From Escherichia coli (GTDB lineage: Bacteria; Pseudomonadota; Gammaproteobacteria; Enterobacterales; Enterobacteriaceae): a stretch of DNA of 64,000 bases. A program made the position numbers and the translations under genes. How positions within the stretch are numbered: position 1 is the stretch's first letter; each line of letters opens with the position of its first letter. The stretch lies in the NCBI RefSeq assembly GCF_003334385.1, contig NZ_QOWN01000018.1; one strand, given 5' to 3'. The notes under the pieces are model-generated. The model saw only the letters and a program-made list of their open reading frames with translations, was not told the origin of the DNA and searched no databases. This document shows, piece after piece, positions 4,871 to 31,441 of the stretch.

Positions 4871-5362
4871 ATGAACATACTTCTCTCTATTGCAATCACA
4901 ACAGGCATTCTCTCCGGTATCTGGGGATGGGTGGCTGTTTCCCTGGGCTTACTAAGCTGGGCGGGCTTCCTGGGCTGTACGGCCTACTTTGCCTGCCCGC
5001 AAGGTGGGCTGAAAGGGCTGGCGATCTCCGCTGCAACCCTGCTTAGTGGCGTGGTGTGGGCGATGGTCATTATTTACGGTAGTGCACTGGCACCACATCT
5101 GGAAATTCTCGGTTATGTCATAACCGGTATTGTCGCGTTTCTGATGTGTATTCAGGCCAAACAGCTGCTGCTTTCATTTGTTCCGGGGACGTTTATAGGC
5201 GCATGCGCGACGTTTTCCGGGCAGGGTGACTGGAAACTGGTGTTACCTTCGCTGGCGCTTGGGCTGATATTTGGTTACGCAATGAAAAACAGTGGCCTGT
5301 GGCTGGCGGCGCGTAGTGCAAAGACGGCGCACCGTGAGCAGGAAATCAAAAATAAAGCGTGA
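4871..5362 (+). CDS. ycdZ: inner membrane protein YcdZ
   Basis: Hydrophobic ORF; start trimmed to MNILLSIAITTG to give 163 aa. Confidence 0.8.
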   Translation: MNILLSIAITTGILSGIWGWVAVSLGLLSWAGFLGCTAYFACPQGGLKGLAISAATLLSGVVWAMVIIYGSALAPHLEILGYVITGIVAFLMCIQAKQLLLSFVPGTFIGACATFSGQGDWKLVLPSLALGLIFGYAMKNSGLWLAARSAKTAHREQEIKNKA

Positions 5363-5425
5363 GGGGCACTCACGCTTTCGCTTAAACAGTAAAATGCCGG
5401 ATGATAATTCCGGCTTTTTTATCTG

Positions 5426-6259
5426 TCAGGATTCCGGTGGAACCGACATATGGCGGTATTTCACCAGAATGTCATTCTGCCGTTCTGCTTTATTTTGCAA
5501 ATCCCACAGACCACGGTCGATACCATCATTAATCAGGAAAATGACCCCTGTTTCGATAGCCGACATCAGGCACAGCATAACAGGTTCGTTCGAGGTGTAA
5601 CCCACTTCCCCTTCAAGCAAGCGCTGGTAGTCAATAAAGCGGAAAACCCCGGCCTGAACTTCATAGGAAAGTATCGTCTTACTGGTGTTCACCGAAGAAA
5701 GGATCTCGCCGGTACTCACATTGACGACGCGCAGGTTCACGGCAATCTGATCGAGCTGGTATTGCGTGTCGGCACCGATGCCAAAATATCTTGCCCCAAC
5801 CCCGCCAGATTTGACGTTGCTTTCATAACCGATAATCGAACCTTCAACCATGATATTTGCCGCCGTTAAAGATTGCAGCGGGATTCGGTTATTAATGGCA
5901 ACCGTGCCGTTTTCTTGTGCCGCACGAATAATCTTGCGCTCGTTAAGCAGGTTTTGTAAGCCCTGGCGCTCCAGCGGTATAAACCAGCGAGAATCTTTCA
6001 GTGCCGTGACCAGCATTGCCGTGGCGCTTTGCGGAACAGCAGTGGAGAAGTTACTTGCCGGGTAGGGTTTAAATTGCCCGGTTTCGTCCTGAATGTTGTA
6101 TACCGAAACAAAGATTTTACCCGTCGGCGCTGGCAGATGGGTCAAATCTTTGTAGCTCTGAGCACGAGGCATTAATGTCGGTCTGGCGGCTTCTTTAGGC
6201 GGGGCGGTTAAGCATCCGCTCAGTAACATGACGGCAACCAAAAGAAATAAGCGCTGCAT
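5426..6259 (-). CDS. csgG: curli secretion channel lipoprotein CsgG
   Basis: 277 aa with lipoprotein signal MQRLFLLVAVMLLSGC; last gene of csgDEFG. Confidence 0.95.
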   Translation of the reverse strand: MQRLFLLVAVMLLSGCLTAPPKEAARPTLMPRAQSYKDLTHLPAPTGKIFVSVYNIQDETGQFKPYPASNFSTAVPQSATAMLVTALKDSRWFIPLERQGLQNLLNERKIIRAAQENGTVAINNRIPLQSLTAANIMVEGSIIGYESNVKSGGVGARYFGIGADTQYQLDQIAVNLRVVNVSTGEILSSVNTSKTILSYEVQAGVFRFIDYQRLLEGEVGYTSNEPVMLCLMSAIETGVIFLINDGIDRGLWDLQNKAERQNDILVKYRHMSVPPES

Positions 6260-6285
6260 GATTATTTTCCTTATGAAGCTGGGGC

Positions 6286-6702
6286 TTAAAAATCGGTTGA
6301 GTTATTTTGTAAACCCGAAACCTGGATGGTCGAGGTTTGTCCGGTTTTACGATCTGTCACGTTCAACTGCAATTGACCATCGCGGTTGGCAATATCGACA
6401 ATATAATCGTTGGTCACCATGCGGCCCGGTTTACCGGTATTAATATTCGACAGTAGCCCACCTAAAATTTGTGACTGGATGGCCTGAGTAAAGTTATCTA
6501 ACGCTGAGGGTGTTTCAATACCAAAGTCATCGTTATAGCTCGGATCTTTATAAGAGTTTTGGGCCTGAGCGCTATTTAATAAAAAAGCGCCATTATTTGG
6601 GTTACCACCAAAGTTTGGATTACGGAACTGGAAAGTCATGGTTCCAGCCCAACTTAATGGCGAAATAAGCATGAGTAGAACTACTGCATGTTTGACACGC
6701 AT
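6286..6702 (-). CDS. csgF: curli assembly protein CsgF
   Basis: 138-aa secreted protein, operon position. Confidence 0.93.
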
Positions 6703-6726
6703 TGCAGCCTCCGAACAATTTTTTAT

Positions 6727-7116
6727 TTAGAATTCATCATGCGCCAAATCGCCCGTACTTAATAACGCCTGATTTATCTGGCGACGATTTAGTGCTTCTT
6801 CAGTTTGAATCAGTGCAAAGACGACAGTTTTCTCGAAGTCTCTTTTCAACGGAAATAAAAAAGTCTGGAAAATAACGTCCTGATTGACCGTTATAGTGAT
6901 CCAGCTTCCCCATCGTGCACTGGGCCTTTCATTAATCGTTAAGTTACCCGTATAGTCACTTTCCCATTTATCACTAAAGGCTCGGTAAAAATCATGGCCA
7001 ATAGATGAAACAGTATGGTCAGTTAGCAATCCCGGGACTTCTACCTCAACGGCGTGAAGATTCCCTGCGGCGAACAGAAATTCTGCCGCCACAATCCAGC
7101 GTAAATAACGTTTCAT
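6727..7116 (-). CDS. csgE: curli secretion specificity factor CsgE
   Basis: 129-aa secreted protein, operon position. Confidence 0.93.
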
Positions 7117-7120
7117 GGCT

Positions 7121-7771
<651 letters not shown>

Positions 7772-8525
7772 GATGAAACCCCGCTTTTTTTATTGATCGC
7801 ACACCTGACAGCTGCCTCTAAAATAGAAGCACCAGAAGTACTGACAGATGTTGCACTGCTGTGTGTAGTAATAAATCAGCCCTAAATGGGTAAAATATAA
7901 AACTAATGGATTACATCTGATTTCAATCTAGCCATTACAAATCTTAAATCAAGTGTTAAACATGTAACTAAATGTAACTCGTTATATTAAAATGTTAACC
8001 TTAAGGTTTTATTAAGTTTAGAAATGATAGAAAAGTTGTACATTTGGTTTTTATTGCACAATTTTAAAAAATCATACAAATGGTGATAACTTACTAATAA
8101 TGCATATAAAAAATATTTCGGTGTAGTCCTTTCGTCATGTAAAACGTTCTTGTTTTTTCTCCACACCTCCGTGGACAATTTTTTACTGCAAAAAGACGAG
8201 GTTTGTCACGGCTTGTGCGCAAGACATATCGCAGCAATCAGCGACGGGCAAGAAGAATGACTGTCTGGTGCTTTTTGATAGCGGAAAACGGAGATTTAAA
8301 AGAAAACAAAATATTTTTTTGCGTAGATAACAGCGTATTTACGTGGGTTTTAATACTTTGGTATGAACTAAAAAAGAAAAATACAACGCGCGGGTGAGTT
8401 ATTAAAAATATTTCCGCAGACATACTTTCCATCGTAACGCAGCGTTAACAAAATACAGGTTGCGTTAACAACCAAGTTGAAATGATTTAATTTCTTAAAT
8501 GTACGACCAGGTCCAGGGTGACAAC
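7772..8525. promoter_or_regulatory. csgD-csgB divergent intergenic control region (csgDEFG and csgBAC promoters)
   Basis: 754-bp AT-rich non-coding gap between divergent csgD and csgB; known to carry sigma-S dependent promoters and multiple regulator binding sites. Confidence 0.85.
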
Positions 8526-8981
8526 ATGAAAAACAAATTGTTATTTATGATGTTAACAATACTGGGTGCGCCTGGGATTGCAGCCGCAGCAGGTTATGAT
8601 TTAGCTAATTCAGAATATAACTTCGCGGTAAATGAATTGAGTAAGTCTTCATTTAATCAGGCAGCCATAATTGGTCAAGCTGGGACTAATAATAGTGCTC
8701 AGTTACGGCAGGGAGGCTCAAAACTTTTGGCGGTTGTTGCGCAAGAAGGTAGTAGCAACCGGGCAAAGATTGACCAGACAGGAGATTATAACCTTGCATA
8801 TATTGATCAGGCGGGCAGTGCCAACGATGCCAGTATTTCGCAAGGTGCTTATGGTAATACTGCGATGATTATCCAGAAAGGTTCTGGTAATAAAGCAAAT
8901 ATTACACAGTATGGTACTCAAAAAACGGCAATTGTAGTGCAGAGACAGTCGCAAATGGCTATTCGCGTGACACAACGTTAA
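8526..8981 (+). CDS. csgB: minor curlin subunit / nucleator CsgB
   Basis: Start trimmed to MKNKLLFMMLTILG; curlin repeats (Q/N-rich). Confidence 0.95.
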   Translation: MKNKLLFMMLTILGAPGIAAAAGYDLANSEYNFAVNELSKSSFNQAAIIGQAGTNNSAQLRQGGSKLLAVVAQEGSSNRAKIDQTGDYNLAYIDQAGSANDASISQGAYGNTAMIIQKGSGNKANITQYGTQKTAIVVQRQSQMAIRVTQR

Positions 8982-9021
8982 TTTCCATTCGACTTTTAAA
9001 TCAATCCGATGGGGGTTTTAC

Positions 9022-9477
9022 ATGAAACTTTTAAAAGTAGCAGCAATTGCAGCAATCGTATTCTCCGGTAGCGCTCTGGCAGGTGTTGTTCCTCAGTACG
9101 GCGGCGGCGGTAACCACGGTGGTGGCGGTAATAATAGCGGCCCAAATTCTGAGCTGAACATTTACCAGTACGGTGGCGGTAACTCTGCACTTGCTCTGCA
9201 AACTGATGCCCGTAACTCTGACTTGACTATTACCCAGCATGGCGGCGGTAATGGTGCAGATGTTGGTCAGGGCTCAGATGACAGCTCAATCGATCTGACC
9301 CAACGTGGCTTCGGTAACAGCGCTACTCTTGATCAGTGGAACGGCAAAAATTCTGAAATGACGGTTAAACAGTTCGGTGGTGGCAACGGTGCTGCAGTTG
9401 ACCAGACTGCATCTAACTCCTCCGTCAACGTGACTCAGGTTGGCTTTGGTAACAACGCGACCGCTCATCAGTACTAA
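9022..9477 (+). CDS. csgA: major curlin subunit CsgA
   Basis: 151 aa with Gly-rich N-terminus and SxxxQxGxGNxAxxxQ curlin repeats. Confidence 0.97.
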   Translation: MKLLKVAAIAAIVFSGSALAGVVPQYGGGGNHGGGGNNSGPNSELNIYQYGGGNSALALQTDARNSDLTITQHGGGNGADVGQGSDDSSIDLTQRGFGNSATLDQWNGKNSEMTVKQFGGGNGAAVDQTASNSSVNVTQVGFGNNATAHQY

Positions 9478-9535
9478 TACATCATTTGTATTACAGAAAC
9501 AGGGCGCAAGCCCTGTTTTTTTTCGGGAGAAGAAT

Positions 9536-10300
<765 letters not shown>

Positions 10301-10394
10301 GTTTCTGAACAACTCACGTTGCTGAGCAGAAAAATGCGATTTAACCAAAAAGCCTGCTGTACACTTAAGAAACAAGAAGGTGTAAGGAGGCGTT

Positions 10395-10928
10395 ATGAAA
10401 ACGCGTATTCATGTTGTGCAGGGTGATATTACCAAACTGGCCGTTGATGTGATTGTGAATGCGGCTAATCCGTCATTAATGGGAGGCGGCGGCGTCGATG
10501 GGGCCATTCATCGCGCAGCGGGTCCGGCCCTGCTGGATGCTTGTTTAAAAGTCAGGCAACAGCAGGGCGATTGCCCTACGGGGCATGCCGTTATTACGCT
10601 TGCAGGCGATCTTCCCGCTAAAGCCGTAGTGCACACCGTCGGGCCAGTCTGGCGTGGTGGTGAACAAAACGAAGACCAGCTTTTGCAGGATGCCTATCTC
10701 AATAGCCTACGACTGGTGGCGGCAAACAGCTATACGTCAGTGGCTTTTCCTGCAATCAGTACTGGGGTTTATGGTTACCCTCGTGCGGCAGCGGCTGAAA
10801 TCGCAGTAAAAACCGTTTCAGAATTTATTACCCGTCACGCTTTACCCGAACAGGTATACTTTGTCTGTTATGATGAAGAAAACGCCCACCTCTACGAAAG
10901 ACTCCTTACCCAACAAGGAGATGAATGA
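10395..10928 (+). CDS. ymdB: macrodomain O-acetyl-ADP-ribose deacetylase YmdB
   Basis: 177 aa with macro-domain motifs ([18 protein letters not shown]). Confidence 0.93.
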
Positions 10929-12351
10929 TTTGCCCCGGCTGGCGAGCGCGGTGCTGCCACTGTGTTCGCAACATCCCGGTCAGTGTGGCCTTTTTCCTCT
11001 GGAGAAAAGTCTGGATGCGTTTGCCGCCCGGTATCGTCTGGCCGAAATGGCAGAGCATACGCTCGATGTTCAGTATTACATCTGGCAGGACGATATGTCG
11101 GGTCGGTTACTGTTTTCCGCCCTGTTAGCCGCAGCAAAGCGTGGCGTTCGCGTCCGTTTGTTGCTGGACGACAACAATACGCCCGGACTTGACGACATTT
11201 TACGCTTGCTTGACAGTCATCCACGCATTGAAGTCCGGCTTTTTAATCCTTTCTCGTTTCGCTTGCTGCGTCCGCTTGGTTATATCACCGACTTTTCCCG
11301 TCTTAATCGCCGTATGCACAATAAAAGTTTCACTGTCGATGGCGTGGTGACCCTGGTGGGAGGACGAAATATTGGTGATGCCTATTTTGGAGCAGGGGAG
11401 GAGCCACTTTTTTCGGATTTAGATGTCATGGCAATAGGACCCGTGGTAGAGGACGTTGCCGATGATTTCGCCCGCTACTGGTATTGCAAATCGGTTTCAC
11501 CCTTACAGCAGGTGCTGGATGTCCCGGAGGGTGAAATGGCGGATCGCATCGAGTTACCCGCCTCCTGGCATAACGATGCCATGACGCATCGTTATTTACG
11601 CAAAATGGAATCCAGTCCATTTATAAATCATCTGGTTGATGGAACATTGCCGCTTATCTGGGCGAAGACACGTTTATTAAGTGATGATCCGGCGAAAGGG
11701 GAGGGCAAGGCAAAACGGCATTCACTGTTACCGCAGCGCCTGTTCGATATCATGGGCTCACCCAGTGAACGCATCGATATTATCTCTTCCTATTTTGTAC
11801 CGACACGCGCAGGTGTGGCGCAACTCTTACGGATGGTGAGAAAAGGGGTAAAGATTGCGATCCTAACCAATTCTCTTGCCGCTAACGATGTTGCTGTCGT
11901 CCATGCCGGATACGCGCGCTGGCGCAAAAAATTGCTCCGCTATGGCGTGGAATTATATGAACTCAAGCCGACGCGTGAACAAAGTAGTACGTTACACGAT
12001 CGCGGCATAACCGGTAATTCCGGAGCCAGCCTGCATGCTAAAACCTTTAGCATCGATGGTAAAACGGTGTTTATCGGCTCTTTCAATTTCGATCCGCGTT
12101 CAACATTGCTCAATACTGAAATGGGCTTCGTGATAGAGAGCGAAACGCTGGCACAGTTAATTGATAAACGCTTTATTCAGAGCCAGTATGATGCGGCCTG
12201 GCAGCTCCGTCTGGACAGGTGGGGACGGATCAACTGGGTTGATCGTCATGCAAAGAAAGAGATTATTCTCAAAAAAGAACCCGCCACCAGTTTCTGGAAG
12301 CGGGTTATGGTCAGACTGGCGTCGATATTGCCCGTGGAATGGTTATTGTAA
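10921..12351 (+). CDS. clsC: cardiolipin synthase C (phospholipase D family); start may instead be the TTG at 10930
   Basis: Two HKD motifs ([18 protein letters not shown]); overlaps ymdB stop (ATGAATGA). Confidence 0.88.
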
Positions 12352-19887: not shown

Positions 19888-20289
19888 TATTTGTTCCCTA
19901 AATACACCATGAGAACATACCTGTTAATAACAGGACAATATCAGGTGAATGATTATGCAATTCAACGGTGTTTTTCCAAGTATCTAAGCAGTTTTACACA
20001 GATTCTATGCAGTATCGGTATAGTCTCTTTTTAGCATAACTTATTGATATCTATAAAGAATCTGTGAAGTCTCTTTTCAGGGTAAACTGTATCGTGTTAG
20101 TCGTCCCTCTCTCGACTCCTAGAAAAGTGCTATATACAGGGCTATATAACGATATATAGATAGTTGGTCACATGGTGTAACTATCAAGAAACTTAACGAT
20201 TTCCTACGTGAAAGTTAGAAAGTGATGGTTATAGTTACCCTCCTAAAATCTTCATAGCTCCTTCATAACCAGTCTTAAAAGGACTTCCT

Positions 20290-20404
20290 TATGAGACACT
20301 TTCAACGTAACGGTAGAATGCACCTTCCAAGTGTCTCATAAGCTTGTTTTTGAATTATGAGACAGCTAAACTTATGAGACCAACTTTTGAGACTTCTTAG
20401 GGGG
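20290..20404. promoter_or_regulatory. res-like cluster of resolvase-type half-sites (TGTCTCATA, matching TGTCYNNTA) overlapping the promoter of the small serine recombinase gene
   Basis: TATGAGACA at 20290-20298 and inverted TGTCTCATA at 20332-20340; further direct copies at 20357-20365, 20373-20381 and partial at 20387-20394, ending just 5' of the RBS/ATG at 20409. Confidence 0.55.
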
Positions 20405-20408
20405 ATGT

Positions 20409-20957
20409 ATGGCGGTGATTGGTTATTGCAGGGTATCAACACAAGACCAGACTGTAGACAACCAGAAACTACAGATAGAGAAGGTTCACAAGGTCGATAA
20501 ATGGTTTATTGATGAGGCTGTCTCAGGAGCTACAAAGGCCACCAGCAGAGATGGTTTTAGAGACATGATGAACTATGTAAGGTGTGACGATACGTTAGTT
20601 GTGGTAGCTATTGACCGTTTAGGGCGTAATACCGTTGATGTGCTCTCTAACGTGGAGGCACTACAGACTAAAGGTGTGAGGGTTGTTTCTCTACGTGAAG
20701 GTTTCGACTTATTAACACCAATCGGTAGAGCAATGCTTACTATGATGGCTGGTTTAGCTGACCTTGAAAAAGACCTTATCAGTGAACGTAGAAAGGCTGG
20801 TATTGAACGTGCTAAAGCTGAAGGGGTTCACATGGGGAGACCTGTAAAAGCTTCTTCAGAGACTGTAAAGATGCTTATCTCACAAGGTAAAACGAGGTTG
20901 CAGATTCAGGAAGAGCTAGGAATCTCTAGAGCAACTTATTACAGACTTGCTAAATAA
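20409..20957 (+). CDS. small serine recombinase (resolvase/DNA-invertase family) with C-terminal HTH
   Basis: 182 aa; N-terminal catalytic motif VIGYCRVSTQDQ (active-site Ser), resolvase core, C-terminal HTH LGISRATYYRLAK; RBS GGGGGA upstream. Confidence 0.85.
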   Translation: MAVIGYCRVSTQDQTVDNQKLQIEKVHKVDKWFIDEAVSGATKATSRDGFRDMMNYVRCDDTLVVVAIDRLGRNTVDVLSNVEALQTKGVRVVSLREGFDLLTPIGRAMLTMMAGLADLEKDLISERRKAGIERAKAEGVHMGRPVKASSETVKMLISQGKTRLQIQEELGISRATYYRLAK

Positions 20958-21300
20958 GTTACTGAATAGTTACATGGATGTAGCTGATATTTGGCTTTTT
21001 TGCAAAGGGGGTCACATAGCTGGTGTGACGGGTACTTAGCAGGTATAGACCTGTGATAGATATTTTCGAAGATTCGGGGAAGATGAGATTCAAAGAGGGC
21101 TAGTCATTTTTTATAAAAATTTTCAGAATCTGAAAAGTTACTGTACAGAATATATACAGACATCTTTAAAGTATCTGTAAAGACTTTTAAGATAAAAGAT
21201 AGATATCCAGAAAGGATATCCGTTTAGAAAGACTGTTAAGTATCTCTTAAAAGAGAGTAAACCTTGTCAATAGTGATTGCAATAAAAATTTTTATTTCTT

Positions 21301-21963
21301 ATGTCAATTGAGCATATTTTAATCGGGAAGCATCATGGGGGTTCTGATTACTGGAGAACTCCATTTTTGTTATTTAAGAATCTAAACTGTGAATATATTT
21401 TCACGCTGGATGGTGCTGCAACTAAGCACGATACGTTATTACCCCGCTTTACGGATGATATTCACAATCAATCGTGGATTGGCGAAAGGGTGTTCTGTAA
21501 CCCGCCGTACAGCGATATTCCGTCGTTCCTCATAAAAGCGTCTGAGGCAGATTTAGCGGTATTCCTGATACCGTATAGAGCCAACACCAGCTACTGGCTT
21601 AGGCACATTTACAGCAATAACCACTGTCATGAAATCCGTATTCTTCATCGTGCAGTTAAATACCTTCCACCAGCAGGCCATAACGGGCTTACTATTCGTT
21701 CACCGTTTCCAAGTGCAGTCATTGTTTTTAAAAAAGAACCACGCAGGCATGAAATTACGCAGATGATTTGCTGTGCTGATACATTGCTACCGTTAACCAT
21801 CATTAACAGAGGAGGCTTAAGAGGAAGACCCACCATTTACCCACCTGAGACGCTCGACAGCTTCATAAAACTATACAGGCAAGGAAAACCCATTAAGTGC
21901 ATTGCAGATGCTCTCAGAATGCCTCTGAGCACGTCATACAGGATTGCGCAAAGGTTGAGCTAA
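21301..21963 (+). CDS. phage-type DNA N6-adenine methyltransferase (Dam/T1-like family) with C-terminal HTH-like extension; orphan (no cognate nuclease recognised)
   Basis: 220 aa; motifs DYWRTP, FTLDGAA and catalytic CNPPYS (NPPY), ...FPSAVIVF; extra C-terminal approx 70 aa with HTH-like segment. Confidence 0.75.
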   Translation: MSIEHILIGKHHGGSDYWRTPFLLFKNLNCEYIFTLDGAATKHDTLLPRFTDDIHNQSWIGERVFCNPPYSDIPSFLIKASEADLAVFLIPYRANTSYWLRHIYSNNHCHEIRILHRAVKYLPPAGHNGLTIRSPFPSAVIVFKKEPRRHEITQMICCADTLLPLTIINRGGLRGRPTIYPPETLDSFIKLYRQGKPIKCIADALRMPLSTSYRIAQRLS

Positions 21964-22325
21964 AATTCTCATAAATATGGTCATTTACAAGACAGGTGAT
22001 TCAGATATTAAGAAGTATCCCTGTGAACAATAAATGACCAATCAGTAATTATTCTGTGAAATAATTGTTGCAATTTATAATCACATCTGTTATAGTTTCT
22101 ATATGGGCTGATAAAAAAGTTCATGTCTTGAAGTGGTAACACTTGGGGAGGTGTCAGATGGTTGGCGTATAAAACCTCTCATTCATGGTATACCTCAGCG
22201 TTTTAATCATCGTACTGTTTCAGGCATGGACTTCTTTATCAGTCCATCAATCCCCCAGATATTTTAATCACACAGGCTAATCGGTTTTATCCGGTTGGCC
22301 TTTTCACATATGAGGTATTTTATGA

Positions 22326-23294
22326 ATGAAAAAAGAAACTAATGCTTTTATTATGGTAGATAAACGAGTTGCACAATTCCCTAAAACATTAAAGCCAATT
22401 GACCGCTTGGTATATTTCACTATGCTGGATGGTGCTGATTATTACGAATCTAAGTTCGGGAGATATGCACCAAGTATTGACTATTTGATGGTTATGTCTG
22501 GTGCTACACGTAATACAGTTATTGACTCTCTGAAAAGACTTGAGTCACACAGGCTTATTGAGAAGACCAATATCAAAGGGCAGCAAAGTATTTTTAAAGT
22601 ATTCACGTTAGATGAGCGTCCAGAAGTCTTATCAGAACCTACCCTTGATGAGCGTCGTAGAGTCAAATTATCAGGTCAACCAGAATCTGACACTAACCCA
22701 ACCAAAAATTGGTTACCTACCCAACCAGAATTTGGTTACCTACCTAACCAGAAATTGGTTACATGTAATACTGAATATAAAGACAAAAATATAAAAACTA
22801 AAGAAGAAAGACTAAAAGGGAACTTTGAAGAAGAATCTCTTAAGAAGGGAGCTTCGCTCTGTGATTCACATGAATGTGATATTAAAGAAGATGACTTTCT
22901 TTCTTTGGATGAATTAAATGATTTTCTCTCTATGAATGAATCTGACCTTGATAGTGAAGCTACTAAAGAGGTCGTTAAAAAGGAAGATAAAATCTCTGAT
23001 GTGATTGCTAGTAGTGACCATAAAAACACACAGTGCCCCGCCACTGATGATGAGATGGACCCCTTCGATGATGATGAAGAGGATGAAGAGTCAGAACGTG
23101 AAAAAGCCATTAAGAGGGTAGAGAAGAAAAAGAGATTCGAGCTTGCAAGACAAAAGAACAAAGTATCGGGTTTAGACCCATTCGATGACAGTGAAGATGA
23201 TTATTATCTTTCACCGAGAAAGAAACAAACCCAGGATGACAAGAAGCAAAAAATTAAACCGAAGATGTATTTTGCTGGTGGAGGTATGCGCTAA
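22326..23294 (+). CDS. putative replication initiator (winged-helix N-terminal domain, acidic C-terminal tail) with origin-like iterons embedded in its coding sequence
   Basis: 322 aa; N-terminal winged-helix-like region; internal DNA iterons plus AT-rich tract resembling the lambda O/ori arrangement; C-terminus very rich in D/E. Confidence 0.55.
   Translation: MKKETNAFIMVDKRVAQFPKTLKPIDRLVYFTMLDGADYYESKFGRYAPSIDYLMVMSGATRNTVIDSLKRLESHRLIEKTNIKGQQSIFKVFTLDERPEVLSEPTLDERRRVKLSGQPESDTNPTKNWLPTQPEFGYLPNQKLVTCNTEYKDKNIKTKEERLKGNFEEESLKKGASLCDSHECDIKEDDFLSLDELNDFLSMNESDLDSEATKEVVKKEDKISDVIASSDHKNTQCPATDDEMDPFDDDEEDEESEREKAIKRVEKKKRFELARQKNKVSGLDPFDDSEDDYYLSPRKKQTQDDKKQKIKPKMYFAGGGMR
22676..22820. 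repeat. Origin-like iteron array (3-4 direct repeats of about 23 bp, each containing the palindrome AACCARAAWTTGGTT) followed by an AT-rich tract
   Basis: AACCCAACCAAAAATTGGTTACCTAC / CCAACCAGAATTTGGTTACCTAC / CTAACCAGAAATTGGTTACATG at 22695-22765, partial unit at 22677-22693, then AT-rich 22766-22820. Confidence 0.65.
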
Positions 23295-23584
23295 TGAGAG
23301 AATATAACGGTGAAAAACGATACAAAGATTATCTATTAAGGCGCTACAGCATTTCTCGTGAAGGTCATCTTCTGAAAGATACTCATGGGGAGGTTTACCG
23401 GATTCGACCGAAGAAGGAAGGAAAGAATTATTTCTTTTTTGATGGTGTGACAGATTTAAAGATTGACGCTTTGAGGTTTGCAGTGCTGTATCATTATGAT
23501 ATCTGGGATTCGGTCCACCAGCTACGATTAAAAGACGGTGACCCCGGTAATCTGAGGGCCACCAATATCATCACAAAACGTTAG
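23294..23584 (+). CDS. small protein, possibly degenerate HNH/NUMOD-like; function unknown
   Basis: 96 aa; start overlaps stop of upstream gene (TAATG); C-terminal segment LRLKDGDPGNLRATN loosely resembles HNH_3-type motifs. Confidence 0.4.
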   Translation: MREYNGEKRYKDYLLRRYSISREGHLLKDTHGEVYRIRPKKEGKNYFFFDGVTDLKIDALRFAVLYHYDIWDSVHQLRLKDGDPGNLRATNIITKR

Positions 23585-23903
23585 TTTGTTTTACCATCAT
23601 CAATCGTAATTGTGATTTCATATTTGAAAAGCTTAATGCTGAAATTGAATCGTGTACTTTTGGCGATAATCATTTTTAAAAGCTGATACACCAGAAGCAC
23701 CAGAAACACAAAGCAACCTAAGCTTGCGAATCTGTGAGATTCAGCAATTGTTTCAAGAAAGCCCATTAATTCCCCTTATTTATCAAAGGGAATGACCTGT
23801 ATCAGCCCCTATAACCATAATATCATGTAAATGAGATGTTGACAATATGTTAAATAAATGTTAAGATTGTAGTATGAGTAAGAGATTTAAGGAGATTTTT
23901 ACA

Positions 23904-24194
23904 ATGACTCACACAGTTACGCGCCTTTTGCCAGAGGCATTTGAACGACTGGCAGCAATCAAAGCCAAATACCCTGATATGAAGCACACGGCGCTTGTTG
24001 GAGAGCTTTTAAAAGAGTCGGTAGCCCTGACCCCTTTCGATAACGTTAAGGGCGTTGCAGAGGGTTCTAAGGCCATCAGAATCACAACAGGCCAACTGGA
24101 ACTACTCAAAGCGCAGTCCGCAGTAGCAGGTTGCTCAATGATTCAGGTGTTAAGCACTAAGGTTCATCAACTGGCGGATAAATTGGAGGTTTAA
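23904..24194 (+). CDS. hypothetical protein, possible ribbon-helix-helix DNA-binding regulator
   Basis: ORF track 23874..24194; the internal ATG at 23904 is preceded by RBS AAGGAG; predicted beta-strand/helix pattern (TVTRLLPEAFERLAAIKAK). Confidence 0.45.
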   Translation: MTHTVTRLLPEAFERLAAIKAKYPDMKHTALVGELLKESVALTPFDNVKGVAEGSKAIRITTGQLELLKAQSAVAGCSMIQVLSTKVHQLADKLEV

Positions 24195-24580
24195 TGTATG
24201 ACTTTTATAAACATCGTGACCATTTGGTAAGATTTGACGGTAGAGTCTGGAAAGACATAACAGAAACCAATAAACCCAAGTTTACCCACCAGCAATTAGC
24301 CTCAAGATTTGATATCTGGACTGAAGCACAAAAAGATAATGGTGATTTCGAGTTTATCAGGGGTTTTGATTATGCTTACGAAGATGACCTTAAAGACGCC
24401 ATTAAATTAATTGAAAATTTTAATGGAAATAATTCTGGTGACAAACACAAAGCCAATGGTAATCGGTATGACAGGGAGTTAATTCTTGATGCCATTTCCA
24501 GAGGTCAATCACAAAGTTATATTTCTGAGAAATACGGCTTATCACGTAGTCAATACTACAAGATTAAAGCGTCTGTGTAA
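24194..24580 (+). CDS. hypothetical protein with C-terminal HTH (regulator or terminase-small-subunit-like)
   Basis: 128 aa; start coupled to upstream stop (TTAATG) with RBS GGAGG; C-terminal HTH ISEKYGLSRSQYYKIKA. Confidence 0.5.
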   Translation: MYDFYKHRDHLVRFDGRVWKDITETNKPKFTHQQLASRFDIWTEAQKDNGDFEFIRGFDYAYEDDLKDAIKLIENFNGNNSGDKHKANGNRYDRELILDAISRGQSQSYISEKYGLSRSQYYKIKASV

Positions 24581-24717
24581 GCCTGTGAGAATGAGTGAGA
24601 CTCAAAGATGAGCTACCCTATTACTAAGGTGTCTCACTCCCTCTGTAACCCGCATGGTTACTGGCCTCAGAATGGCTATTTTGGCAGATTTAAGATGTGT
24701 TTTAGAGGAATTTAAAA

Positions 24718-25041
24718 ATGAACAACTTCCCATTACAAATTTTCGTTGATAACGACACCGCTCTGATGATTCAGGCTTTCACTGATTCCGGTGTATCAAT
24801 TGACTTTGACAGGCTGTTAGAGTTGATGGCTGATAATGCAGAAAACATCTCTGACTTTATTCAGTCGGTGGAGTTTAACGAGCCTCGAATGATGCTACCA
24901 ATTAAAGACAGCAACATGAAAAGATTGGTTATCGAGCAAACGAACAAATACAGCGTTAGCCCTGAAAGATATCTCAAGGCAGCTATAGCAATTTTGTGCG
25001 CTGACAATATTTTGGTGACGGATTCGAAGGTGGTGCATTAA
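24718..25041 (+). CDS. hypothetical protein
   Basis: 107-aa ORF with RBS AGAGGA; no recognisable motif. Confidence 0.45.
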   Translation: MNNFPLQIFVDNDTALMIQAFTDSGVSIDFDRLLELMADNAENISDFIQSVEFNEPRMMLPIKDSNMKRLVIEQTNKYSVSPERYLKAAIAILCADNILVTDSKVVH

Positions 25042-25118
25042 TGGGCTTAATAATTGCTTGGACAGCTTTGGGTTTATTTGTTGGTTGCTGGGTAGGTAAC
25101 ACAGTAAATAAGAATTGA
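25041..25118 (+). CDS. candidate small hydrophobic peptide (25 aa, single predicted TM helix), translationally coupled to upstream ORF
   Basis: ATG overlaps upstream TAA (TAATGG); encodes MGLIIAWTALGLFVGCWVGNTVNKN; below the size cut-off of the ORF track. Confidence 0.3.
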   Translation: MGLIIAWTALGLFVGCWVGNTVNKN

Positions 25119-25535
25119 TGTTGCCAATCTGTTAAAAAGCTGTTGACAAATAACCTTAAGCATGACATAATTTTAATTATGGGAGAGTAATTCTCTCTTA
25201 TATTTCTTTCAATAATCCGATGGATGGATGGATATTCTGAGTTGGTGAGGTATGTTCTATACCGAACATTCTGAAAGGTGCAATGCTTTTCGCTACATGA
25301 CCTCTTATATAACCTGAGAGGTCATCTCGAAAAGTACTCTTGTTCATTCGTTATTGAATCCTTTAGATGTTTTAATTTCTTCACCTTATGAATAGCCCTT
25401 TATAAGAAATTATCTAGGGCTATTCAGTTTTTAAAAAGCATACTTGGCAAACCGCCTTTTAAGTCTCTTCTAAGTTCGTAGGCTGTCAGGTGTGCTTTTT
25501 AAAAACTGAATATACTTAGAAGAGGAAATGAAATA

Positions 25536-26246
25536 ATGGCAAATGACATTTATATTAGTGGAAGAAAAATTGATAGCTTCGGTGACTGGTCGCCACAGAC
25601 TGAACATCCAGCTATCGTTATTCAGCGTAAAGAACACGATGCGAGAATTGAGCTTGAGCAAGAGCTAAAGATGTCACCAAAGCAAATTACCTTTGTGTCT
25701 CCTGAGCCTCAAGAGATGCCTGATGTATGCAAGAGTGAAGCATTGCTTGAGCTTGAAAAGAAATATTTCCCAGCTTTAAAAGCACAGCGTCTTAGATTAG
25801 ATGACGCTTACAGCAAAGTTACCCTGATGCAATCAGCTATTGAACCGTCAGAATTTGAGATTCAGGATGAATTGTCACAGAAACCATTTGTTTATTACCA
25901 ATATGCAGACAATGATGGTTTTGGTACTTTTCCTGAGAATATCCCAGACGCGATTAGTAGTCTTCCTGATGGATATCGAATTGTGAAGATGGTTAAAGCT
26001 TCAAGGGGTGCTGGTCAATTTATTTATATGACCAATAAGAGCGATGAAGAACTCGCTGAACTTGCTAGACAGAACATCTTGGCATCACGTAACAAGCAGC
26101 TTGATAGTGCTAAGTTGTATCTCTCAAGAGAGCTTCAGGCTATGAAAGAGCTTGTTAGTGAATATGAGTCGCAGAAGAAGATTGCTATGCAAGCTGATAT
26201 TGAGCAGTTAGTGAAGATTTCTCAGAAGTATAGTAAAGCACTTTAA
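25536..26246 (+). CDS. hypothetical protein with C-terminal coiled-coil
   Basis: 236-aa ORF with RBS GAGGAAA; no recognisable catalytic motif. Confidence 0.5.
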   Translation: MANDIYISGRKIDSFGDWSPQTEHPAIVIQRKEHDARIELEQELKMSPKQITFVSPEPQEMPDVCKSEALLELEKKYFPALKAQRLRLDDAYSKVTLMQSAIEPSEFEIQDELSQKPFVYYQYADNDGFGTFPENIPDAISSLPDGYRIVKMVKASRGAGQFIYMTNKSDEELAELARQNILASRNKQLDSAKLYLSRELQAMKELVSEYESQKKIAMQADIEQLVKISQKYSKAL

Positions 26247-26270
26247 TTATGAATTAAGAAGAGGTGATTA

Positions 26271-26480
26271 ATGTTTGAAGAACGTTTAGAGACTATTCGG
26301 TCTGTTTGTGAAAACTTAAAGTTACAAACCAAGCCAGCCTTAAGAATTAAAACCAAACATCAAATTATCACCTCACACAAACCAAAAACACGCAAGATTC
26401 CAAAGTGGTGTATTGACCGTATTCCTTCTGATGCTCAAATCATAGGTGAAACGGAATTACATTATCTTGTCCGACATTAA
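26271..26480 (+). CDS. hypothetical small basic protein
   Basis: 69-aa ORF with RBS GAGGTG. Confidence 0.4.
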   Translation: MFEERLETIRSVCENLKLQTKPALRIKTKHQIITSHKPKTRKIPKWCIDRIPSDAQIIGETELHYLVRH

Positions 26481-26577
26481 AAATTGGTTGGGTAAAATCA
26501 ACGGGAGAGATTATCGAGTGACATCGGTAGTTTCTCCTTTTTTTGTATATGAACACTTAAGAGGTGAAAAAATATGA

Positions 26578-28749
26578 ATGGCACAGTTTAAAGTTGATGA
26601 TTTTCTGATTGAGCTAGGTTTTAACTCTCAGAGGGTTTTAAAAGGTCTGGAAAAAGCCGAGAAACAAACGATGCAGGTAGCATCACGAATTGAGAAGCGA
26701 TTGAATAAAGCTTTTAAAGTTAACCCTACGCCTTTAAATGATTCTCTCAAGGTCATGGAAAGAAATGTCGATAAAACTGTTTCCAAGATTGAGCAGCGTC
26801 TTAAAAACACTAAAGCGTTTAAGATTAAAACGGAAATTGAGGATACTTTAAAGCCACTTAAACAACCGAGACAGCCACGAATTAGCGGCAACAGAGCAAT
26901 CACAGCAGCACATAGTGTGAATATGTCTAAGCTTGGTGATATTAATCCGCTGATGGCTAAAATGTTTAAAGCACAGTATTACAGCTTAAGCGGTAAGGCT
27001 GGTAATATTGGAAGTGAAAAGTTTAACGCTGAACTTGCAAAATTAAATCAATCTCTTCGTGAAACGTTGAATAAACTCAGGTCACAGACAAAGACCGCCA
27101 GCATCAGCAAAGTAAATGATTCCTTTAATAATCTTGCAAGCAATGCAATTAAGTTATCTGGTGCATTTTACTCTGTGATGGGTGCTCTTAACGCTTACAA
27201 GGCCATTATGAATGCAGGTCTTAAACGAGATTCCGCACAGAGAGCCGCTAAGTTTGTACTTGGTGATAAAGCATCTGAAGCTGAAACATTTATCAGGGGA
27301 CTGGCTGACAAGACAGGTCTTAATATCTCTGAAGGACTATCAAGCTACGCTAAGTTTGCAGCAGGTGCTCAGGGTTCTATGTCACAGGAACAGACACAGG
27401 AGCTATTTGGTAATGCAACGGCTATGAGCCGTTTAATGGGGCTTTCTAACGATGAACTAAACGGCATTTTGAAAGCTTTTGAGCAGATGGCTTCTAAGGG
27501 CAAGATTCAGGCTGAAGAATTACGTGGGCAGTTAGGTGACCGTATGGCTGGTGCATTTAAGCTATTCGCTGAAGCATTGGGTATGACTGCTACAGAGCTT
27601 GATGCAGCCATGAAAAACGGGAAGGTACTTTCCGCTGATACTCTCCCTAAAGTCGCTAAACAGATGGGCTTGATGATTGATAAAGCGGGTGGCTGGGCTG
27701 AAGTCGCTAAGAGCACCCAGACAGCTTTAGGTAAGTTAGCAAACAACTGGGATGATACGATGGTTAAAATCTTCTCAGGTTCACAGGATGAGTTAAACGG
27801 CTTCTTATCCAGCCTGGGTAGCCTGCTTAGTGAAATGGGGATGAGTTCTTCTATCGCTGGTGATGCTATCGGTGGACTTATCGACATGCTTAAAGCTGGT
27901 GTAGATGATATTCGCGTATTCAATAACACCATTGAAGGCTGGATTTTACAGGTTAAAAAGTTCTATTACAGCCTTGATGACACTAAACGAAAACTACTTG
28001 ATGAAGTCGGTGATGGTTTTATCAATTTTGTCAAAGGTCTTGCTATAGCGTTATCTGCAAAGACGCTATTCAGTGCCACTACAGGGGTGATGAACCTGAC
28101 AAGAGCAATCACAACGTTAGGTACAAGAGCTAATCAGGTGGCTGGTCAGGTAACTACTGGTAAAGGTGGTGGAAAACTGAAAGGTGTAGCTGGTGGTGTA
28201 GGTAGTGCTCTTGCAATTGGTTATGCTGATGACGGTTATGAAACAGCGTTAGCATTAGCTTCAATGATTCCACAAATCAGAGGTGTCACCCTTGGTTTAT
28301 ATGCATTGAAGAAAGCACTGGATTTTATGAATCAGGAAGTAGTCAAAAACGCTAATATGCATCCATCTGGGGTAGGTGTGGGTAGTGACTTTAATCCTGT
28401 GTATTCTGGTGACCCTAATAAACCGAATATGATTAACGAAGGATGGAGTAAAATTTTTAATTCAATGGGTGAATTGTTTAACAATGCCACAATGAATATT
28501 GCAAGATTCAATCATCCAGAATTAAACAACATTAAGCAAGATTCAGCATTAACGAGTGCAGATATTCAGAGTCTGAGGGATGAAATTAGTGCTTTGAGTA
28601 AACGTATTCAGGAGCCTGTGAAAGTTTCACTTGGTGGTGAAGTTGCCATTAAACCAGATGAAACCAGCTTTATGACCTTTAGCAGTAATATCTACGACCA
28701 ATATGCAGAAGCTACGCTATTAAGTTCATCATTCCCAGAAGATGATTGA
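26578..28749 (+). CDS. phage tail tape-measure-like protein
   Basis: 723 aa; coiled-coil N-terminal part; segment AEELRGQLGDRMAGAFKLFAEALGMTATELDAAMKNGKVLSADTLPKVAKQM resembles the conserved tape-measure N-terminal domain; Gly-rich middle. Confidence 0.65.
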   Translation: MAQFKVDDFLIELGFNSQRVLKGLEKAEKQTMQVASRIEKRLNKAFKVNPTPLNDSLKVMERNVDKTVSKIEQRLKNTKAFKIKTEIEDTLKPLKQPRQPRISGNRAITAAHSVNMSKLGDINPLMAKMFKAQYYSLSGKAGNIGSEKFNAELAKLNQSLRETLNKLRSQTKTASISKVNDSFNNLASNAIKLSGAFYSVMGALNAYKAIMNAGLKRDSAQRAAKFVLGDKASEAETFIRGLADKTGLNISEGLSSYAKFAAGAQGSMSQEQTQELFGNATAMSRLMGLSNDELNGILKAFEQMASKGKIQAEELRGQLGDRMAGAFKLFAEALGMTATELDAAMKNGKVLSADTLPKVAKQMGLMIDKAGGWAEVAKSTQTALGKLANNWDDTMVKIFSGSQDELNGFLSSLGSLLSEMGMSSSIAGDAIGGLIDMLKAGVDDIRVFNNTIEGWILQVKKFYYSLDDTKRKLLDEVGDGFINFVKGLAIALSAKTLFSATTGVMNLTRAITTLGTRANQVAGQVTTGKGGGKLKGVAGGVGSALAIGYADDGYETALALASMIPQIRGVTLGLYALKKALDFMNQEVVKNANMHPSGVGVGSDFNPVYSGDPNKPNMINEGWSKIFNSMGELFNNATMNIARFNHPELNNIKQDSALTSADIQSLRDEISALSKRIQEPVKVSLGGEVAIKPDETSFMTFSSNIYDQYAEATLLSSSFPEDD

Positions 28750-28905
28750 TTTAACGGTGTTCTACGTGAATAAAGCAAAGTTAATACCCGCACTAAAAAT
28801 TATTTTTTACGTAGCACACGCTTAACAGAGAAAATACTTATATATCAAAGGCTTGGTTAAAAATGATTAAAATACACTAAGCCTTTGAAATCAAAGGAGA
28901 ATTTA

Positions 28906-29694
28906 ATGATTTACTCTAATCAACTTCGTTACAGTGGCAAAGATGGTGTTTACTTCCATCTACAAGGCCAACCAGATAATTTCTTGTCACTATCAGCAAC
29001 AGAGAACATGGAATTTGACAGCCCTATGATGGTGACCACTCAAAATATGCAATCAGGGCAGACTGTAACAGATAATGTAATGCGTTCACCCAGAACTATT
29101 TCAATCAGTGGTGTGGTTGTAGTTGGTGAATCCGGTAGTATCCTCATCTCAAGAGATAATAAGCTGGTGGAAAACTTCATCGACACTCTTGAAAGCTGGC
29201 GTGACCAGAAGCAAATTATTTCGGTCATCTGTAAAGACGGAATTAAAATTGATGATTCTATTATTACGAGTTTTAAAGCCTCTAAAGATGTTGGTATTTC
29301 AAATGGTCTAAGAGTCCAGCTAACTTTTCAGGAAATTAACTTTAAAGCAATTGTAGGGCAAACTGATGTTTCAGCAGCTACTGGCAAAGCTGCCACCACG
29401 AATGACGGTGGTGTGACCAGTAAGAAGAATGCAGGTAACGTGACCACTGAACGCAATAACGCGCCTATGCTATCGTGCAAAGAGTTAATGAATATTAGCG
29501 ATGTATCCGGTTACGTTCCGGCTATCAGAAATGATATTCTCGATGCTCAGATTAAGTGCAATAAAGCTTGGAAGCTGGACTATTCAGACTTAACAGAAGC
29601 TGAAAAAACCAACGTCACCAATGCTAATAGTAACGCTGGTCGAGTAGCTTCAAAGCTTAAAAAGTACTCAGTGAATCCTAATAAGAGATACTAA
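28906..29694 (+). CDS. hypothetical protein downstream of tape-measure gene (possible tail-associated protein)
   Basis: ORF track 28885..29694; ATG at 28906 preceded by RBS AAAGGAGA; gene order after the tape-measure gene. Confidence 0.45.
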
Positions 29695-31220
29695 ATCTCT
29701 ACTACATCAACATCTATTAAACCCCTCTCAGTGACTTCAGAAAGCGACTGTATAGCCTCTGTAACGTTGTCTGAGGGGTTTTCTGTTATAGGTAGGTCAA
29801 TTACCTTGCCGTTGTGAAAAGTCACTTTACAGCGACGTTTAGCGGCATCTATAACTATTTCTTTGAGTACGCCCTTGATAAGTAGCTGTGTCTCTATCAT
29901 CCCTTCCTTTGTTGTCCTGTCAATATCTTTGAGGCTTCCAGTTGTGATGGCCTTTATCCGCTGTGTTTCCTCTTCGATATCATGATTGAGTTTTGATAGC
30001 GCATTCTTCATATCACGTAATTTCTCTGTGATAATTGTCATGTCATCGAGTTCAATAGCGAGTTCTGCCATTTTTGAGATTTTACGCTGCAAATCTTCAC
30101 GCTGTAATTTAAGGCTATCAATAGTGTCAGTATTTTCAGTTTCAAAACGGTCGCATAATGCGAGCATGTAGAGAATAGTTGCATCCGTTTGCTTACGACT
30201 GATAGCCTTTGCACTACACCTGTTAGCTGAACGATTAGGGCATCTGTACATCCCAAAACGTTTTAAGGCATATCCACCAAGAACAATAGTAGCCCCACAC
30301 TCAGAACATTTGATGATACCCCTGAACAAGTTGACTGATAGCGGATTACTTGATACAGAAGCCCTACCATATTGCCCTGTGTTCAGTTGCTGTACTCGAT
30401 AGAATAGTGACTCACTGATTATTGCGGGGTAGTAACCCTGAACTTCTTCACGTCCAGCAGGTGTGAAACATCCAATCACAGCACGATTTCTGAGTAGTTT
30501 CTTTACAGCAGTATCAGACCACCCCTTTTGTTTGGGTGTGTATTGATTCAATGACAAGTGGCCTTCATCGTTTAAAGTTCTGGTGATAGCCCAAAAGCTT
30601 AAACCCTGTAATCTCAGGTCAAATGCTCGTTTAACAACTTCCACTTTATCGGGGATGATAGTGAATGTTCGACGGTCATCATTCAGCCTTAACCATGCAG
30701 GACAACGCCTAGATACCTTGATACCTTCGGAGATGAGTTCTTTTTTACGGTTCCATGCAGCTTGGACACGCTCAGACTTCCTCAGACTTTCCTCATGCGC
30801 CCGCTGCATTATCAGAATGCTTTTAATCAGGGATAACGGGTCTTTTAAACTTTCTCGTGTGTAATGTTCACCATCGGACAGGGTGACTACATCTACACCA
30901 GCCCTTAAGATACGGCGTAATAGCTCAGAAGCAATATCAATATCCTGACGTGACAGACGGTCTAAACTCTCGATTAGTAGCGTATCACCAGCTTTAACAA
31001 GCCCTTTCTCGATAGCGGTTAGAAAGTCACCTAGACCACCTTTCAGGTGCTTACCACTAAAAGCACTTTTCCCCAAATCTTTAAAGCTCAAGGATGAATC
31101 CAAGTAAAACTCAGGGTTCTTATCAAGCCAGTCAGTAACCAGCTTAGATTGTCTGCGTACAGAGTCCCCTTTTAGTTGTCGTTCACTTGAAAATCTGATG
31201 TAGCTGATTGCCCGTCTCAT
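29691..31220 (-). CDS. large serine recombinase (serine integrase)
   Basis: About 510 aa; N-terminal resolvase-type catalytic domain ([12 protein letters not shown], active-site Ser), recombinase domain, zinc-ribbon-like Cys cluster (CSECGATIV...CPNRSANRC), C-terminal coiled-coil; first ATG at 31220, track start at 31226 is TTG. Confidence 0.88.
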
Positions 31221-31243
31221 ATTCAATACCTAAAATGATGTGT

Positions 31244-31441
31244 TTAGGAACCCATTATACTGAAGACAATACCGGACCACATATTCAGGGCGGAGTGACC
31301 GGTAACGCCAAGCTGCTCAACGTAGAGGGGTAAGAAGGGCATTACCAGACTGAAGGCGGCACCGGTAAGAAAACAGCCTAGCCAGGCGACGATCAGGTTT
31401 CGTTTCCAGTTTATAGGGGTGTCATTTTCACAGGGTGACAT
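31244..31441 (-). pseudogene. mdtG: mdtG 5' fragment (N-terminal 58 codons of MdtG fused to 7 element-derived codons before a stop)
   Basis: Starts [16 protein letters not shown]... as MdtG; sequence diverges at the junction near 31260. Confidence 0.85.

Follow-up and report, generated by a model that had tools for sequence, protein, structure and literature searches.

The csgD-csgB control region of an Escherichia coli contig: a reference allele with a fixed-length central spacer as a testable lead

Introduction

The divergent curli operons csgDEFG and csgBAC are transcribed away from a shared intergenic region. The questions taken up here are whether this copy departs from the reference and how the DNA between the two promoters is organised. 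The window, which is the whole 64-kb stretch of DNA that was analysed, contains this region as follows.

7772-8525, no strand: intergenic control region csgD-csgB; 754 bp, 34.5% G+C, 100% identical to MG1655
7121-7771, minus strand: csgD CDS (context), from the open reading frame list, the MG1655 annotation and a translation comparison; Pro19 against K-12 Ser19
8526-8981, plus strand: csgB CDS (context), from the open reading frame list and the MG1655 annotation

With 34.5% G+C (65.5% A+T), as against 48.4% G+C for the whole window, the gap is the most AT-rich 754-bp stretch present; only 0.6% of all 754-bp windows are equally AT-rich and all of them overlap it. The lowest G+C content over 200 bp, 23.5%, falls at 7900-8099. 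The region is also the longest (754 bp, followed by 735 and 393 bp; median 60.5 bp) of the 62 gaps separating features where the window is colinear with MG1655. Published work gives the same figures, about 754 bp and about 65% A+T, and places the region among the longest and most densely bound in K-12 with regard to length rank, AT content and site density (PMC5745457).

The earlier note on this DNA had described an AT-rich gap of 754 bp between divergent curli operons, exceptionally long and densely regulated, with nothing unusual relative to expectation. This description holds: the exact coordinates and the orientation of csgD (minus) and csgB (plus) match the MG1655 annotation, the length and density of regulation are stated in the literature, and the gap is base for base that of the reference. 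The alignment to MG1655 that the note had proposed (NC_000913.3, 1103197-1103950) returned 100% identity and 0 differences, with neither a point mutation nor an IS insertion. The gap is almost certainly the canonical bidirectional control region of the curli operons, already known and present here in its reference state. As the reference allele, it offers no change in curli or biofilm formation to be attributed to it, and one of the most studied promoters of E. coli thus matters little for this particular window.

Conservation across the Enterobacteriaceae

Species-representative genomes were scanned with a degenerate DNA pattern for an 11-residue CsgD peptide, which gave 62 loci, 50 of them with both gene starts. 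The genera include Escherichia, Salmonella, Citrobacter, Enterobacter, Kosakonia, Phytobacter, Trabulsiella, Yokenella, Franconibacter, Dryocola, Cedecea, Buttiauxella and Pluralibacter, among others, with CsgD identity down to 70% across the 50 loci. The gap measures 725-802 bp (median 761) with 32-38.5% G+C across these 50 Enterobacteriaceae species and, being kept across them, its length and AT-richness are ancestral to the locus rather than a peculiarity of E. coli.

Alignment divides the gap into four modules: A, the csgD leader, which is 145-167 nt long across the family; B, at 7920-8094; C, at 8095-8349, of 242-266 bp; and D, the csgB side, of 156-196 bp. Both promoter-proximal modules are conserved in the 50 species while the centre is not and, judged from the aligned sequences, both are under purifying selection across the family. 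Identity of module C to E. coli is 0.71 in E. albertii and 0.54-0.59 in Salmonella and Citrobacter, and elsewhere it falls to the level of shuffled sequence (0.50).

Landmarks of the two promoters

The features recognised in the promoter-proximal modules, with positions relative to the csgD transcription start where given, are listed below.

7920-8094, no strand: module B, csgD upstream regulatory block; 174-176 bp in 51 of 51 sequences
7925-7952, minus strand: putative csgD P1 core promoter, with -10 TAGATT at 7930-7925 and -35-like TTGATT at 7952-7947; read from sequence
7963-7978, minus strand: GTTACATTTAGTTACA, OmpR D1/RstA box with a CpxR-like GTAAC-N5-GTAAC overlapping on the other strand; -60 to -45
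8032-8065, no strand: MlrA palindrome AAAGTTGTACA-N12-TGCACAATTTT; -147 to -114
8350-8525, plus strand: csgBAC promoter side with csgB leader and Shine-Dalgarno region; 61-85% conserved per 20-bp bin except 8472-8491
8391-8401, plus strand: CsgD box CGGGTGAGTTA; unique in the 64-kb window
8420-8427, plus strand: CATACTTT, candidate csgB -10; six consecutive invariant columns

The sites expected upstream of csgD, OmpR D1 near -50 and the MlrA palindrome near -113 to -146, are both present as unique matches: GTTACATTTAGTTACA occurs once in the window, as does the palindrome, for which 0.02 occurrences would be expected. Within the latter, GTTGTACA shows no variation among 51 sequences, all of which have it 117-119 bp from the transcription start. 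The consensus sequences behind the OmpR D1/RstA/CpxR naming of GTTACATTTAGTTACA, and the MlrA consensus by which the palindrome at 8032-8065 was named, are those we take to be in use. OmpR D1 has been placed at -51 (PMC13304067), matching the position of GTTACATTTAGTTACA, and the positions of this motif and of the MlrA motif agree with published maps (PMC3535384; PMC12388358; PMC13304067). The sequence is the reference allele, with its OmpR/RstA box, MlrA palindrome and CsgD box intact, unique in the 64 kb and at published distances.

The P1 core, whose position relative to the leader start is a predicted one, overlaps a block (7912-7951) that is 82-89% conserved. A simple sigma-70 consensus scan called neither P1 nor the csgB promoter, as expected for activator-dependent sigma-S promoters. 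On the csgB side, the CsgD box was named by the consensus CGGGKGAGNKA, which is our assumption, and stands 35-36 bp from a conserved CTTTG anchor in 51 of 51 sequences. From its invariant columns, CATACTTT is likely the csgB -10, which would put the csgB start near 8433-8440. Helical phasing between the csgD and csgB promoters was also considered; the distance between the MlrA site and the CsgD box ranges over 353-366 bp with no periodic preference, leaving strict phasing unsupported.

An exact match to the strict IHF consensus WATCAANNNNTTR is absent from the gap in E. coli, and TTGATT, which occupies the homologous IHF position in most other genera, is not found there in E. coli. IHF is placed at -181 in Salmonella (PMC13304067), and its binding has also been reported elsewhere (PMC12388358). 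At the tolerances used, no exact or near-consensus site was found for CRP, Cra, RcsAB, RcdA or IHF, a result still compatible with the weaker sites of the literature. Three terminator-like sites fall in 7600-8700, against 0.6 expected; one of the candidates considered, a hairpin at 8160-8175 on the plus strand, was taken as chance, its stem being lost in other Escherichia lineages.

The region would operate as follows. Leftward, csgD P1, starting at about 7918, would make the csgDEFG mRNA, whose 148-nt leader would act as a landing pad for repressing sRNAs. P1 would depend on OmpR at about -50, MlrA at -114 to -147 and IHF near -180, and H-NS and others would silence it on AT-rich DNA. Rightward, CsgD translated from this mRNA would bind the CGGGTGAGTTA box and thereby switch on csgBAC. 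In the literature, expression of csgD and of curli needs RpoS, MlrA, OmpR and IHF (bioRxiv 10.1101/2025.07.09.663852) and is repressed by H-NS, CpxR and RcsB (PMC12388358). Binding by OmpR, MlrA, IHF, H-NS, CpxR, RstA, RcsB and CsgD, as well as sRNA pairing, is taken from published studies (PMC3535384; PMC12388358; PMC3465796; PMC5745457).

The central spacer, island and linker

Module C resolves into three parts.

8095-8188, no strand: AT-rich spacer of fixed length without conserved sequence; 94 nt, beginning at the IHF position (-181 in Salmonella)
8189-8211, no strand: conserved island AAAAAGACGAGGTTTGTCACGG, family pattern AARAAA-N-GTSACG; about -271 to -293
8212-8349, no strand: variable, G+C-richer linker between the csgD-side and csgB-side modules; 136-149 bp across genera

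The spacer is exactly 94 nt long in 11 of 15 genus representatives, with a G+C content of 24-36% and an ungapped identity to E. coli of 0.26-0.39 outside Escherichia. The island that follows lies about 288 bp upstream of the csgD start. It stands 168-171 bp from the MlrA half-site in 45 of 51 sequences; in six Pluralibacter-like ones the distance is 157 bp. Nearly all of the length variation of the gap centre is held by the linker (8212-8349). Among the Escherichia sequences, a -1 indel at about 8315 makes up for a +1 indel at about 8277. In all genera the G+C content passes through a trough and then a hump.

One account of these 255 bp (8095-8349) is that they are functionless filler, their constant length being an accident of low indel rates. 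We regard this as a serious possibility, although short of probable. It agrees with the random-level identity of the central sequence between genera and with the position of most mapped sites, at most 200 bp from the csgD start (PMC5745457). Against it, the 94-nt part is exact in those 11 genera whereas lengths differ by 22 nt in the sequence-conserved leader and by 40 nt on the csgB side; the trough-hump pattern is found in all genera; and the island keeps its fixed 168-171 bp from the MlrA site. Furthermore, H-NS has been reported to cover -69 to -339 in Salmonella (PMC13304067).

The alternative that we put forward, with some hesitation as it is possible but doubtful, is that the 94-bp spacer and the island at -288 form a real and undescribed constraint, with the 290 bp upstream of P1 serving as a nucleoprotein scaffold of fixed geometry in which selection acts on length rather than on sequence. 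These distal 290 bp would then work in a spacing-sensitive manner, an IHF- or H-NS-dependent loop or wrap bringing the island, as the site of another factor, to the promoter. The linker at 8212-8349, alone free to vary, would insulate the csgD module from the csgB module. The intrinsic curvature of the region and competition between IHF and H-NS have already been discussed (PMC5745457; bioRxiv 10.1101/2025.07.09.663852). In the literature searched, OmpR D3-D6 end at -267 and IHF lies at -181 (PMC13304067), and no factor was named for the island at about -288; work on CRP or Cra footprints may already assign one. The same search found no family-wide description of the spacer-island geometry. 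The fixed-length spacer with its island at -288 is the only item of this analysis that may be new, and constitutes a modest, testable lead on how a long control region is organised rather than a discovery.

The csgD leader and ES056

The leader carries four features.

7772-7918, minus strand: csgD 5' untranslated leader, sRNA target; based on the 148-nt leader (PMC3465796), the ES056 5' end and TAGATT
7827-7918, minus strand: match to Rfam RF02752 (ES056 sRNA); first 92 nt of the csgD P1 transcript
7801-7851, minus strand: long leader stem-loop, about -30 to -80 from the AUG; minimum-free-energy fold of the leader
7855-7890, minus strand: RprA pairing site I of csgD mRNA (-119 to -84); coordinates converted from PMC3465796

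A leader of 148 nt has been described for the csgD mRNA (PMC3465796). This length, the 5' end of ES056 and the TAGATT 7 nt upstream together place the predicted P1 start at about 7918, with ES056 as the 5' two-thirds of the leader. The predicted fold of the leader (-40.1 kcal/mol) contains a long hairpin at 7801-7851, in agreement with the stem-loop described at -29 to -83 (PMC3465796); the pairs at its tip, 7814-7818 with 7826-7830, vary on both sides across genera (CG, AU, UA). Adjacent to RprA site I, the block 7832-7871 is 83-87% conserved in 51 sequences. RprA and other sRNAs pair with the csgD leader and lower both translation and mRNA level (PMC3465796).

Whether ES056 is instead a small-RNA gene in its own right has to be weighed. 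The curated Rfam family matches over its full length (model positions 1-92 of 92; 119.7 bits against a gathering threshold of 43, E=1.5e-22), and a discrete 92-nt RNA-seq transcript from a mapped start has been reported (PMC4676190). Nevertheless, an independent gene is improbable: ES056 begins at the csgD P1 start and lies wholly within the 148-nt leader (PMC3465796), no Rho-independent terminator was noted for such novel transcripts (PMC4676190) and none was found at its 3' end, and the premature termination or cleavage of csgD mRNA discussed for sRNA binding would yield just such a fragment (PMC3465796). ES056 would thus be best seen as a fragment of the csgD leader. A permissive Rfam scan of 5000-11000 found no structured RNA in the gap other than ES056. 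The only further hit of that scan, STnc400 at 5353-5428, falls outside the gap and scores far below threshold.

Short open reading frames

Eight mechanically called open reading frames of 30-64 amino acids lie in or across the gap, and the earlier note had judged those in it to be almost certainly non-coding. When six other Escherichia lineages were aligned (E. albertii, E. whittamii and four GTDB species-level relatives), all frames but one gained stops, and frames broken by stops or frameshifts in these sister lineages bear out that judgement and rule out hidden coding sequences as a candidate. It is thus very unlikely that any of them, for example 8203-8397 (plus), 8238-8432 (minus) or 7987-8178 (minus), encodes a real small protein, despite the length of some (63-64 amino acids) and although the frame at 8238-8432 is open in 4 of the 6 sister lineages. 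The C-terminal half of that frame is shifted by the +1/-1 indel pair and it acquires stops in E. albertii, while the N-terminal half, which is conserved, falls on the csgB promoter and the CsgD box. The remaining frames carry stops in most sister lineages, DNA identity in the centre is at random level beyond Citrobacter and Salmonella, and NC_000913.3 annotates no gene within the gap.

Variation among Escherichia coli genomes

The gap was matched in 5372 of 5426 complete E. coli genomes (2677 at >=99% identity, 2679 at 95-99% and 17 at 80-90%). In a sample of 60 evenly spaced records, 12, or roughly a fifth, were 100% identical without insertion, BL21(DE3) among them, and nearly all had a gap of 752-755 bp; the first search also gave 100% matches in ATCC 8739, C and C600. 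The allele is that of K-12, B, C and many other phylogroup A/B1-type strains.

The window as a whole is not K-12. Compared with MG1655 from 1095426, it carries 14 substitutions and an 11.37-kb insertion in mdtG, none of them inside the gap, and the flanking csgD and csgB are as annotated in MG1655 save for one CsgD residue. That residue accounts for the difference nearest to the gap, G7717, which gives Pro at position 19 where MG1655 has Ser. The Pro19 allele was counted with a 41-mer centred on 7717, for which megablast seeds only if the centre base matches, and at least 2699 of 5426 genomes carry it, O157:H7, Nissle 1917 and ATCC 8739 among them; S19P as an unusual variant is thereby ruled out. 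Pro19 is a common allele, and the Ser19 of K-12 is probably a minority or derived residue. The residue-19 state of Salmonella CsgD, as we presume it to be, was also drawn on for reading Ser19 as derived. That the gap of this strain carries a mutation or insertion altering curli expression relative to the reference can be dismissed with near certainty: the window does differ from MG1655 by its 14 substitutions and 11.4-kb insertion, and natural isolates do carry IS1 insertions in this gap, but 7772-8525 shows zero differences and the nearest one, G7717 (Pro19), is widespread.

IS1 in the csgD-csgB gap of natural isolates occupies different sites, with at least 10 such records among the matches listed. 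In NZ_CP178690 it lies at the equivalent of window positions 8281-8291, in the variable central linker, and in NZ_AP027822 at the equivalent of 7856-7865, in the csgD leader, csgD also being a pseudogene there. Escherichia sp. MOD1-EC7003, whose gap is otherwise near-identical, has a 20-bp deletion at the equivalent of 8442-8461 and has thereby lost some of the conserved block (GCGTTAACAAAATACAGGTT) proximal to the csgB promoter. In NZ_CP032667, a re-sequenced MG1655, locus tags skip from RS13850 (csgD) to RS13835 (csgB), the two intermediate numbers having no listed feature; these are possibly predictions that were dropped from the gap.

Two further observations concern other parts of the window. 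CTGA is repeated at either junction of the insertion that interrupts mdtG (19888-31256, 11.37 kb relative to MG1655). A prophage remnant in E. coli A1 (NZ_CP029328) shares about 90% identity with this insertion and occupies the same site in mdtG; the annotation of the remnant comprises two recombinases, a Dam methylase, an HTH protein, a transposase, a tape measure protein and a baseplate protein. Among complete RefSeq E. coli genomes only A1 covers at least 80% of the insertion, at 89.8% identity, so that this collection holds no closer copy. In the 735-bp ycdU-serX gap, a 181-bp unit is repeated in tandem at 1536-2158, in 3.4 perfect copies. Of the five substitutions relative to MG1655 in the first 19.9 kb, three fall within this array, its copies thus being homogenised here and not in K-12.

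Comparison with known systems

Compared with MG1655 (NC_000913.3, 1103197-1103950), all 754 bases, the flanking genes and their orientation are the same, and outside the gap CsgD differs by Pro19 in place of Ser19. Rfam RF02752 (ES056) finds a full-length match at 7827-7918 on the minus strand, which here is best read as the 5' part of the csgD leader and probably not as a separate gene.

The counterpart in Salmonella enterica, csgD-csgB or agfD-agfB, is 754-755 bp long (PMC6611641; PMC13304067), with 760 bp in S. diarizonae. Opposite effects in E. coli and Salmonella have been reported for RcsB and CRP (PMC12388358; PMC7247823). The order of the modules, the layout of OmpR, MlrA and CsgD-box sites and the 94-nt length of the spacer are shared between Salmonella and the window. 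Identity to the window reaches 0.76-0.80 in the promoter-proximal modules as against 0.54 in the centre, where the 94-nt spacer shows an ungapped column identity of 0.27 and the linker one of 0.38.
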